Below, piece by piece: positions 62,341 through 63,149 of a stretch of DNA of 64,000 nucleotides. How positions within the stretch are numbered: position 1 is the first letter of the stretch; each line of letters begins with the position of its first letter. Origin of the DNA: a virus; IMG/VR virus record IMGVR_UViG_3300050821_001689, positions 5,958 to 69,957 of that record; one strand, 5' to 3'. The position numbers were made by a program, and so were the translations under genes. Under the pieces are notes generated by a model. That model saw only the letters and a list, made by a program, of their open reading frames with translations. It did not search any database and was not told the origin of the DNA.

Positions 62341-62739
62341 TTTGTGTGCGGTATGGGAGGGTTATATCTCATGCCATACAAATGCAAAATTGCTTGGATT
62401 GACGCGAACGGGAAAGCTACTCCAGACGATAACGACGCGGTAGCAATTGCTCTGTTTCATCGGCCAGTGTACGCGCAGTACACGGGAAAGATAACAGAGT
62501 ACTCCAGTCTGATTGAGGAGAGTTTTCCTATTTGTGCTGAACATCGCAAGCAAGTTACAGCGGACATGCTTTTCCCGCGTGGCGGATGGGCATTTGTTCC
62601 TATTCCAGAGAACGACGCGAACGTTTGCGGAGTTACTGGAACAGAGGAACACGCGGCGGATTGCAGGTACTTGGGTAACGACGCATGGAATTGCGGGAAG
62701 ATTGATAACGCGAGCTAACCCTCGCGTACCGCACACAAA
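62341..62739. repeat. 24-nt inverted repeat bracketing a gene
   Basis: 62341-62364 vs 62716-62739, 22/24 complementary. Confidence 0.85.
62371..62718 (+). CDS. hypothetical early protein
   Basis: GGGAGG SD, ATG 62371; Cys/His motifs. Confidence 0.65.
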   Translation: MPYKCKIAWIDANGKATPDDNDAVAIALFHRPVYAQYTGKITEYSSLIEESFPICAEHRKQVTADMLFPRGGWAFVPIPENDANVCGVTGTEEHAADCRYLGNDAWNCGKIDNAS

Positions 62740-62740
62740 G

Positions 62741-63149
62741 GTGAGCATGGAACGGAGGAAACGTTACCATGAAAAACACGCAAGGGAAAATGAGGAAGTA
62801 CATTCCGCAAGCTGGGGAGCCCAAGTACCTCACGTACAAGCCATATGAAATATGGAAGTCTTTCGATGGCTCTTGGACGTGGTACGTGCTCAAAAAGTGG
62901 CAAGTGGATGATTCCAAGCAATACGCGAGATGGTTCTGTCTCGTTACGTCGCCTATCGTGCCTGAGGGTGAGATGGGAGACGTTTACGTTTCAGAGATTA
63001 AGTCGAATGCGAGAAAGGTGTTCGATGAGAATCTGGAACAATTTGACAGAATCAAAAGCGAATCGGAGATAGTGAACAGTCGATTGACTGAACCTATTAA
63101 CGGGTGAGGAAACACGCGGGGAGGAACGTTTCCCGCGTTACATGCTCAC
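62741..63149. repeat. 25-nt inverted repeat bracketing a gene
   Basis: 62741-62765 vs 63125-63149, 22/25 complementary. Confidence 0.85.
62769..63107 (+). CDS. DUF2958-like early protein
   Basis: WTWYV...WFCLV...EMGDVYVSEI. Confidence 0.7.
   Translation: MKNTQGKMRKYIPQAGEPKYLTYKPYEIWKSFDGSWTWYVLKKWQVDDSKQYARWFCLVTSPIVPEGEMGDVYVSEIKSNARKVFDENLEQFDRIKSESEIVNSRLTEPING

Follow-up and report, generated by a model that had tools for sequence, protein, structure and literature searches.

Each of two consecutive genes of a soil phage is enclosed by its own inverted repeat, in which the 5' arm holds the Shine-Dalgarno (SD) site of the gene and the 3' arm lies at or past its stop codon. Most likely, each repeat would fold the mRNA back onto its own ribosome-binding site. 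On balance, though with only modest confidence, we favour a model in which each cistron bears a cis-acting two-state RNA lock that would gate translation and/or direct RNase III-type processing, the arms serving also as boundaries of exchange. The DNA analysed (the window) comprises 64,000 nt, positions 5958-69957 of IMGVR_UViG_3300050821_001689; the genome was circularised to 69,860 bp after trimming of a 97-bp end overlap. The two genes, ORF1 and ORF2, are the first + strand genes past a divergent intergenic region, opposite the structural module, and their position, the sole ground for this designation, suggests that they are early.

The repeat coordinates and match counts reported in the initial annotation (22/24 for IR1 and 22/25 for IR2) were reproduced exactly on re-scanning, and the SD sites and the local 3' ACGCG hairpins that it described were likewise found where it had placed them. 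IR1 and IR2, which bound units of 399 and 409 bp, are the top inverted repeats of the circular genome at an arm spacing of 30-2000 nt, the runner-up matching at 16/17. Not one of 100 Markov-1 shuffles of the genome reached 22 matches, and the longest shuffled repeat, with 20, occurred in a single shuffle. Complementarity between cognate 5' and 3' sequences far above background was found for only two of the 53 called + strand operon genes, namely ORF1 and ORF2, with scores of 22 and 17.5 against a non-cognate background of 7.5 (mean; sd 1.4). With up to 4 mismatches allowed, no arm has a match in the genome other than itself and its partner. Hairpins of the ACGCG..CGCGT form (ACGCGRG type) occur twice in the 64-kb window, both times at a cassette 3' end. 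The possibility that the two cassettes are paralogous frameworks is not supported, as their 5' and 3' local alignments were no better than those of shuffles (1000/2000 and 646/2000 scoring at least as high as the real ones). A consensus scan for promoters and terminators gave signal at the level of shuffles, with no promoter-like site in the arms or on the - strand of 62000-63800, and Rfam gave no match within 61000-64000 (E <= 1) or within 61950-62400 (E <= 10).

Table 1. Coordinates of the two cassettes and of neighbouring features (window numbering; hairpins are predicted)
Feature	Position	Strand	Description
Upstream leader or non-coding RNA	62033..62303	+	RNA contigs; fold z = -2.0 on +, -0.7 on -
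Upstream hairpin	62322..62341	+	8 bp, loop UAAA, then UUUGUGUG; directly 5' of L1; looks like a terminator or stabiliser
L1, IR1 5' arm	62341..62364	+	holds SD1 GGGAGGG, 62355-62361
Cassette 1 local 5' hairpin	62350..62375	+	62350-62358 pairs with 62367-62375, 9 bp; holds SD GGGA and AUG; incompatible with L1:R1
ORF1	62371..62718	+	115 aa
hp1, local 3' hairpin	62708..62727	+	ACGCGAG/CTCGCGT, 62708-62714/62721-62727; spans ORF1 stop codon
R1, IR1 3' arm	62716..62739	+	begins at TAA stop; L1:R1 has 22 Watson-Crick pairs, 1 G.U and 1 G.G mismatch
L2, IR2 5' arm	62741..62765	+	one base past R1; holds SD2 GGAGG, 62754-62758
Cassette 2 local 5' hairpin	62746..62771	+	62746-62754 pairs with 62762-62771; GAGGAAA in loop, AUG in stem
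ORF2	62769..63107	+	112 aa
hp2, local 3' hairpin	63114..63138	+	ACGCGGG/CCCGCGT, 63114-63120/63132-63138, extendable to 10 bp; incompatible with L2:R2
R2, IR2 3' arm	63125..63149	+	22/25 paired with L2
Segment missing in an in-sample variant	62367..63902		run X1, Logan contigs

All structures considered here are thermodynamic predictions. Both long-range helices are present in the minimum free energy fold of 62320-63170 (z = -7.9), and the arm duplexes, at -42.7 (IR1) and -35.9 (IR2) kcal/mol, compare with -10.7 and -15.9 kcal/mol for the local hairpins hp1 and hp2. In the pre-R1 ensemble hp1 forms with p = 0.98, and the unpaired fraction of SD1 is 0.41; in the post-R1 ensemble IR1 forms with p = 0.92, hp1 is lost (p = 0), and the unpaired fraction of SD1 drops to 0.14. 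The pair probability of IR2, a bistable stem, varies between 0.09 and 0.83 with the transcript ends. The AUG-holding local 5' hairpins have z-scores of -3.3 (cassette 1) and -3.8 (cassette 2). With 22-23 pairs in each, over 24 positions in IR1 and 25 in IR2, the predicted long-range stems have the helix length of RNase III processing stems (about 20 bp or more).

The predicted stability also depends on the strand. The IR1 duplex is stronger as sense than as antisense RNA (-46.3 versus -35.6), and for IR2 the two are nearly equal (-39.5 versus -38.6), an A.C mismatch of IR2 being a G.U pair if read on the opposite strand. No pairing of the leader RNA to the arms, in trans or in cis, rose above the duplex-folding background. 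Two soil metatranscriptome runs yielded contigs in this region (X2, 62033-62303; X3, 62038-62270), which are the sole RNA contig cover within 61900-63600; such contigs cannot show absence and carry no strand information.

Further evidence came from a relative phage, L016, in which the arms and all four local hairpins are kept (z = -3.5 and -3.7 for the 5' hairpins). Over the 98 nt of the arms there are two substitutions, the partners of a single compensatory pair in IR2 (62759-63131, A-U in the window phage and U-A in L016), and a 1-nt deletion in R1. As L016 is the one close relative, the covariation amounts to a single base pair. By comparison, 6/39 four-fold sites of ORF2 differ between the two phages (Fisher p = 0.007 against the arms), flanking non-coding DNA is 57-75% identical, and the ORF2 proteins are identical at 112/113 aligned positions, stop included. 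A 37-nt island around L1 (62338-62374) is 100% identical, which could reflect recent recombination rather than selection. Between the unchanged IR1 arms, L016 carries an unrelated in-frame ORF of 81 aa (ORF1') in place of ORF1, and hp1 is kept despite the different surrounding ORF, which uses another reading frame there. In the 5' hairpin of cassette 2, L016 lacks the bulged A and has a G.U pair owing to a C>U change; both differences leave the structure intact. The hairpin directly 5' of L1 also stands at the same place in L016 with a different stem sequence. Farther downstream, hairpins with compensatory or wobble changes stand ahead of genes 3-5, and strong hairpins ahead of genes 6-7 are kept in both phages, the one ahead of gene 7 being a composite stem of ~22 bp. 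Such an arrangement is in keeping with processing of the operon at double-stranded elements.

The mechanism that we favour would involve two alternative states of each cistron. In the first, the start codon would be held in a local 5' hairpin, with another local hairpin, at the 3' end, at or past the stop. In the second, the outer halves of the arms would nucleate a long-range 5'-3' helix of 24-25 bp, which would oust both local hairpins and bury the SD site, so that the complete cistron would become translationally locked once the 3' arm is transcribed. According to the predicted ensembles, the lock would be strong for ORF1 and close to a 50:50 equilibrium for ORF2. Release might be brought about by a nuclease, either RNase III cutting the approximately two-turn helix or an activity trimming the 3' end; the inner halves of the arms could then form hairpins at the ends of a monocistronic mRNA. 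Another possibility is that the lock is held open by ribosomes that terminate in R1. The arms belong to the expression slot rather than to the gene, and hence might double as short homology boundaries for the exchange of cargo ORFs.

Several readings had been proposed in the initial annotation, the first being a per-gene RNA switch. The predicted stems, the mutually exclusive local hairpins, the single covarying pair and the sense bias argue for such a switch. Its more specific form, in which translation occurs only on nascent mRNA, gained no specific support, because the local 5' hairpins are predicted to hold the start codon on nascent 5' ends already. RNase III-type processing, also suggested there, is plausible. 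A role as single-stranded DNA structures is unsupported in view of the sense-strand preference and the 350-nt spacers. Gene shuffling gains real support in altered form, since L016 has swapped ORF1 for another ORF exactly between unchanged arms.

This swap bears on an alternative in which the arms are mainly DNA-level recombination handles for the exchange or loss of accessory genes, their inverted symmetry being incidental or secondary. The replacement of ORF1 in L016 is bounded precisely by the 37-nt L1 island, identical in the two phages, on one side and by the hp1/R1 region on the other. Moreover, a 60-nt contig from run X1 (depth 8.6) joins 62366, 2 nt past L1, straight to 63903, with 1,536 nt removed, and the missing segment has a depth of 15.6 as compared with 34.2 for the flanking 41-kb contig. 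This roughly halved depth of the cassette region points to heterogeneity of the population. However, exchange needs no inverted repeats, and inverted handles cannot excise a segment. Such handles would also leave unexplained the SD sites in the arms, the competing hairpins, the compensatory change, the G.U pair and the sense energy bias. As the main function of the arms, recombination is rather improbable in our estimation, but it can hold alongside the RNA lock.

Far less probable, and already largely refuted, is the view of the units as miniature mobile elements, either MITE-like or akin to the small mobile elements of mycobacteriophages. The size of the units and their 24-25-bp terminal inverted repeats would suit such an element, but there is no target-site duplication around either unit or the pair, the arms have no further copies in the genome at up to 4 mismatches, and in L016 it is the cargo that changes while the arms stay put. 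Neither ORF matches a transposase family, and 13 loci with ORF2 homologues have no such repeats. Inverted repeats flanking a short segment could also delimit an invertible DNA segment flipped by a site-specific recombinase, and a neighbouring - strand gene has a weak, sub-threshold match to a resolvase-type HTH (E = 0.016). We nevertheless consider an inverton very improbable: no strand-changing joint appeared in four runs (as contigs, which drop rare variants), the orientation in L016 is identical, the arm imperfections lie at the same positions in both phages, a flip would leave the SD with no start codon after it, and a recombinase catalytic domain was seen in none of the genes examined. 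Equally hard to credit is that the stems are products of chance or functionless relics of a palindromic rearrangement, as this is contradicted by the shuffles and the cognate versus non-cognate comparisons, by conservation with a compensatory change, and by the recurrence of like geometry in an unrelated phage.

In that phage contig, G001 (L003), two genes have brackets of ~40 bp (at 1980-2607 and 3631-4305 of L003), with one arm ending 9-10 nt before the ATG and its partner starting 1-10 nt past the stop; their folds have z-scores of -6.1 and -7.8, and their duplexes are stronger in sense than in antisense (-58.1 versus -48.0 and -56.3 versus -48.5). When 479 called genes from 16 sequences were compared by an ungapped score, five exceeded the maximum of 1,403 non-cognate controls, and all five were brackets of the window phage, L016 or G001. 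The bracket of G001 gene c was missed by this ungapped test and seen in other comparisons, including the strand energies. Duplex folding over wide windows was dropped as too permissive (background -37 +/- 7 kcal/mol). By a crude duplex-folding measure the window IR2 has only z = -3.1, and the ORF2-homologue locus L008 reaches z = -2.7 owing to a direct repeat of its SD region. The genes bracketed in G001 have no family above threshold, and a scan of IMG/VR with gene c returned only gene c itself.

Of the gene-bracketing repeats with compensatory changes that the initial annotation proposed to seek among related phages, there is the single pair in L016. By the ungapped score, none of the 13 IMG/VR loci with ORF2 homologues (beyond the window phage and L016) is bracketed, and bracket repeats are absent from L015, the sole IMG/VR contig with a close terminase large subunit (TerL, 79% identity). 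Hence, the device is tied neither to the ORF2 family nor to the wider lineage. Scans of IMG/VR with ORF1, the DUF7178 gene, ORF1', a 21-mer of L1 and a conserved 21-mer of gene 4 gave zero matches; in metagenomes, the L1 21-mer was found at one locus, that of the syntenic relative. In the phage collection there was no DNA match and no match to ORF2, and the best cultured TerL was 34% identical. An 18-mer of L2 was found at 14 loci of genome_contigs, approximately the number expected by chance for an 18-mer in 596 Gb (hand estimate); similarity there extends over at most 20-23 nt, and an ORF2 homologue is present at none of them. It is conceivable, though in our opinion unlikely, that cistron-bracketing locks are a general, hitherto undescribed device of environmental dsDNA phages, i.e. 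a fixed-arm "expression slot" at the start of an early operon, helix-locked and nuclease-released, into which accessory genes for host takeover or anti-defence would be swapped by recombination. Regulation would then reside in the slot, and the brackets of G001 would be further members.

Burial of the SD site by a 5'-3' long-distance interaction is already well studied in type I toxins and RNA phages. As described in PMC6733600, in the mRNAs of hok/Sok (plasmid R1) and aapA/IsoA (Helicobacter pylori) the 5' region with the SD pairs with the 3' end and closes the full-length mRNA, transient local 5' hairpins mask the start codon or SD as long as the 3' partner has not been made, and activation requires removal of this partner. 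The phage cassettes resemble this type in their predicted 5'-3' pairing, which would sequester the SD in the full cistron, and in the local 5' hairpins, predicted in both the window phage and L016 to hold the start codon first. They differ in that type I toxins are small hydrophobic membrane proteins, typically under ~60 aa, whereas the phage proteins are hydrophilic and of 112-115 aa (81 for ORF1'), and no antisense antitoxin is evident at the cassettes. Unlike in the hok and aapA mRNAs, the putative locks stand in tandem within a polycistronic operon, so that transcripts do not end at the 3' arm, and different ORFs can occupy the space between the arms.

In rRNA operons, RNase III processes long-range stems from which 16S and 23S rRNA are looped out, and the early region of phage T7 has intercistronic RNase III sites as well as a reported pairing of a 3' end with the ribosome-binding site of gene 1.2. 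As in such RNase III stems, a helix of about two turns would form here from sequences flanking a functional unit of a polycistronic transcript, with internal mismatches near its centre; local hairpins could stay as terminal stabilisers after cleavage, and hairpins precede phage cistrons 3-7. In contrast, the T7 sites are local intergenic hairpins, while the predicted phage stems span genes and contain the SD, and rRNA stems flank non-coding RNAs rather than protein genes. In RNA phage MS2, a ribosome-binding site is closed by long-distance pairing, and whether translation occurs depends on when the RNA folds. The predicted phage pairing would close the site similarly, but the MS2 partner is an upstream sequence of the 5' UTR, and the transient structure there permits translation, whereas the partner here lies past the stop and the transient hairpins would hold the start codon. 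The MS2 gene under such kinetic control is that of the maturation protein, as mentioned in PMC6733600.

The PeSL cassettes of T4-type phages, described in PMC2839356, are short conserved regulatory sequences on either side of non-essential ORFs in variable regions, where they delimit the insertions, deletions and replacements seen among close relatives; they consist of promoter and terminator repeats in direct orientation, which recombine with each other. The arms described here likewise mark the boundary of an ORF replacement between close relatives. Unlike PeSLs, the arm pairs are unique and inverted, contain an SD instead of a promoter, and would pair across their own gene. A description of such a lock on tandem cistrons of ordinary size in a dsDNA phage operon was not found in searches of the open-access literature. 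If the model holds, phages would attach control of timing or dose to a position in the operon and not to a gene, and newly acquired accessory genes would be correctly regulated at once. The signature (one arm at the ribosome-binding site, its partner at the stop, and competing hairpins) would then serve to find early genes of metagenomic phages that are under tight control and possibly toxic to the host, and a compact two-state RNA switch may interest RNA engineers.

A separate problem is the nature of the cargo proteins. GRAVY values of ORF1, ORF1' and ORF2 range from -0.34 to -0.78, and their highest 19-aa Kyte-Doolittle values are 0.57-0.79. None of the three has a Pfam or PHROG family, and matches in the protein atlas were all below 0.9, with a family assigned to none. 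A single distant relative of the ORF1 protein, encoded on a contig of 551 bp, shows 46% identity across 61% of the ORF1 length. ORF2 belongs to a conserved family of small phage proteins, with 13 homologues of ~74 aa in IMG/VR, relative to which it has its own C-terminal extension.

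The inverted repeats bracketing two small genes, ORF1 and ORF2, are a real, non-random and conserved feature. Both (IR1, arms L1 and R1; IR2, arms L2 and R2) were found where the initial annotation had placed them, and in the whole circular genome they take the top two ranks among inverted repeats with arms 30-2000 nt apart, the runner-up reaching 16/17. Among 100 Markov-1 shuffles, a best repeat of 20 matches appeared in one and of 22 in none. When start-codon regions were scored against stop-codon regions for the 53 called plus-strand genes, only ORF1 (22) and ORF2 (17.5) stood out, the non-cognate background having a mean of 7.5 (sd 1.4). 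The Shine-Dalgarno (SD) sequences GGGAGGG and GGAGG lie inside the 5' arms of IR1 and IR2; the stop codon of ORF1 forms the first bases of R1, and R2 starts 18 nt past that of ORF2. Two ACGCGRG...CYCGCGT hairpins at the gene ends (hp1, hp2) were likewise confirmed, with no other ACGCG..CGCGT hairpins in the window, and 9 of its 38 ACGCG words fall within 62402-63202. Inside ORF1, the stretch 62402-62708 holds ACGCG six times, the window average being 0.59 per kb; part of these copies form a repeated AACGACGCG word encoding recurring (D/E/G)NDA motifs, and ACACG is repeated instead in the replacement ORF of a close relative, L016. An antisense open frame of 128 codons (62362-62748, minus strand) spans all of cassette 1 (ORF1 with its arms), the mirror-image stop of L1 marking its limit; with neither an SD nor a counterpart in L016, this frame is unlikely to be a gene.

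The record (69,957 bp), of which the window covers bases 5958-69957, has a 97-bp end overlap, which makes the assembly a circle of 69,860 bp. A divergent intergenic region (about 61660-62340) is followed by a long plus-strand block of small genes crossing the record's ends, and ORF1 and ORF2, as the first two called genes of this block, are by position presumably early genes. Cultured phages are all distant, with a top large terminase (TerL) identity of 34% and no DNA match. The plus strand also carries an array of 30 tRNA genes (17973-21721), unusually many for a 70-kb phage.

Positions of the bracketed genes, their arms and predicted pairings (window coordinates, except for the two rows of the phage contig L003)
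Feature	Position	Strand	Remark
Large terminase	58261-59895	-	within structural module
ORF1	62371-62718	+	
ORF2	62769-63107	+	
IR1 (L1 : R1)	62341-62364 : 62716-62739		22/24
IR2 (L2 : R2)	62741-62765 : 63125-63149		22/25
Local 5' hairpin, cassette 1	62350-62358 : 62367-62375	+	half of SD1 and AUG held; z = -3.3
Local 5' hairpin, cassette 2	62746-62754 : 62762-62771	+	AUG in stem, GAGGAAA in loop; z = -3.8
Local 3' hairpin hp1	62708-62727		-10.7 kcal/mol
Local 3' hairpin hp2	63114-63138		-15.9 kcal/mol
L003 bracket 1 helix	1980-2018 : 2568-2607		fold z -7.8 (z order as listed)
L003 bracket 2 helix	about 3631-3677 : 4256-4305		fold z -6.1 (z order as listed)

Among public runs compared with 61900-63600, a 1,390-nt contig of another soil metagenome (X4) was a mosaic match, and a metagenome query with a 21-mer of L1 returned L016 (2,663 bp); the two look like one relative rather than two. 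Upstream of L1 the window and L016 are 57% alike, with a hairpin directly before L1 in both, built of different stems. The stretch 62338-62374 (L1, SD and ATG) is 100% identical, after which the ORF1 body is swapped for unrelated sequence, an 81-codon open frame that shares its ATG and TAA with ORF1. Resemblance restarts at ACGCGAG, so that hp1 is kept though in a different reading frame, and the A-run of R1 is shorter by one A. In ORF2, 112 of the 113 aligned positions (stop included) are the same, with 20 base differences in 339, and the spacer after R2 is 70% identical. Over the four arms (98 nt) there are only two substitutions, and these are both partners of the pair 62759-63131 (A-U to U-A); the covariation that the initial annotation proposed to look for amounts to one compensatory pair in the one relative compared. 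Four-fold degenerate sites differ at 6 of 39 positions in ORF2 (against the arms, Fisher p = 0.007), and at 5/20, 26/74 and 18/30 in genes 3-5. The 5' hairpin of cassette 2 is retained in L016, where a bulged A is lost and a C>U change gives a G.U pair.

Both long-range helices are present in the predicted minimum-energy RNA fold of 62320-63170 (z = -7.9 against shuffles), with arm duplexes of -42.7 (IR1) and -35.9 kcal/mol (IR2). In the predicted folds each long-range helix draws on one strand of each local hairpin, the 5' hairpin giving its 5' strand and the 3' hairpin its 3' strand, and therefore the two states are mutually exclusive; in the local state the outermost 9-12 nt of every arm are left free and could nucleate the switch. 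In calculated ensembles of a growing transcript, the probability of hp1 is 0.98 as long as R1 is lacking, with SD1 unpaired at 0.41; adding R1 brings IR1 to a mean pair probability of 0.92, hp1 to 0 and the unpaired probability of SD1 to 0.14. IR2 is calculated to be almost equal in energy to its local hairpins, with a pair probability of 0.09-0.83 according to where the transcript ends.

These features would be best explained by a two-state mRNA lock, one per cistron, with the arms doubling as exchange boundaries. In type I toxin mRNAs, as far as the cited account goes, short-lived local hairpins mask the SD or the start codon during RNA synthesis, a final 5'-3' long-distance interaction leaves the full-length RNA inert, and a nucleolytic step removes the lock (PMC6733600). 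The bracket anatomy agrees with this logic, as described there, feature for feature (PMC6733600), and on that ground we read the brackets as translational locks; unlike type I toxins, however, the ORF1 and ORF2 proteins are hydrophilic, 112-115 aa long and not toxin-like. They match no known family. Local hairpins over the SD or start codon would form first, and the long-range helix would then shut the complete cistron. To the per-gene RNA switch suggested initially, the predicted, mutually exclusive folds, the predicted closure of the SD in the presence of R1, the compensatory pair in L016 and the strand bias of IR1 lend support, whereas IR2 lacks such a bias. The agent opening the lock is one that we infer. 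RNase III-type cleavage at the helices, which could free monocistronic mRNAs with protective hairpins at their ends, would suit, because the predicted helices span about two turns, carry mismatches in the middle and are centred near local-hairpin boundaries, and because strong hairpins separate the downstream cistrons. Ribosomes terminating inside R1 could hold cassette 1 open during its translation.

The repeats might instead act at the DNA level, as single-stranded structures. However, a DNA-level repeat has no reason to favour one strand, so sense-strand preference speaks for RNA; sense and antisense arm pairs fold at -46.3 and -35.6 kcal/mol for IR1 and at -39.5 and -38.6 for IR2, the preference being clear in the former and absent in the latter. 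Together with the 350-nt spacers, this does not favour the ssDNA structures that had also been considered.

In a source-like DNA run (X1), a 60-nt contig (depth 8.6) joins 62366 to 63903, which removes ORF1, ORF2 and the DUF7417 gene together with 355 nt from the start of the DUF7178 gene (62367-63902, about 1.6 kb). The deleted segment has a depth of 15.6 and the flanking 41-kb contig 34.2; the roughly 10x unaccounted for possibly represents other variants. The first base of the viral record (window 63904) lies at the assembly branch point of this junction. Because cargo was swapped exactly between unchanged arms in L016, and because of this in-sample variant, the sequence comparison shows arms behaving like the borders of a slot with exchangeable content. 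The pattern resembles PeSL-mediated shuffling in T4-type phages as far as it is described in PMC2839356, but the arm pairs here are unique, inverted and SD-containing, unlike the PeSLs of that description. A transposon-like element is unlikely, as we found neither target duplications nor other copies and the arms remain in place while the cargo changes. An invertible segment is improbable; no inversion was seen in the contigs of the runs examined, which are weak evidence on this point.

Is the device confined to this phage? L003 (record G001, 25,030 bp), one of 13 IMG/VR contigs with an ORF2 homologue, has five inverted repeats of at least 16 matches, four of them within 2.5 kb; its shuffles gave about 1.1 on average and reached five in 1 of 100. 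Two of its genes are closed by predicted long-range helices of about 38-41 pairs, whose 5' arm stops 9-10 nt short of the ATG and whose 3' arm begins 1-10 nt past the stop codon; both brackets have four G.U pairs each and are 8-10 kcal/mol more stable as sense than as antisense RNA. A survey covering 16 sequences and 479 called genes yielded five that outscored every one of the 1,403 non-cognate controls, namely ORF1, ORF2, two L016 counterparts and one G001 gene, the score missing the second G001 bracket. Given this survey and the L003 brackets, the device is rare but not unique to this phage.

The bracketed L003 genes encode 176-192 and 189-194 aa and match no family above threshold. A AAACTGGATA-type motif is common to both L003 arm pairs, and a further pair (3662-3679/4421-4438) crosses one bracket and ends at a classical terminator. 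The bracket is not a trait of the ORF2 family, being absent at 13 of 13 other homologues, nor of the TerL lineage, being absent in L015, a contig with a close TerL (79%). In contig L005, a 19/20 inverted repeat (2330-2349/3292-3311) has its arms 942 nt apart, both inside coding regions, and encloses three small genes, one of them the ORF2 homologue.

Two soil metatranscriptome runs, each from a separate study, contain contigs of 271 and 233 nt, with first bases at 62033 and 62038, that match the window at 100% identity, and 62033-62303 is the only part of 61900-63600 that such contigs cover. This stretch lies immediately before the brackets, in the 'non-coding' region, and a hairpin and U-run follow it at 62322-62348. 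It has no Rfam match and a fold z of only -2.0, and could represent either an abundant leader or a new non-coding RNA of the phage.

Further along the operon, stable hairpins lie 1-10 nt upstream of the SD of nearly all cistrons that start in the first 3 kb (window 63244-63560; genome C1:218-1055, beyond the window's end). The hairpins of genes 3-5 show compensatory or wobble (G.U) changes relative to L016, and those before genes 6 and 7 are an 11+11 bp stem and a composite stem of about 22 bp, respectively. The leader hairpin of gene 4 (DUF7178) with its first 17 codons (63516-63598, about 85 nt) has three differences from L016, far fewer than its surroundings, which hints at another constrained RNA element.
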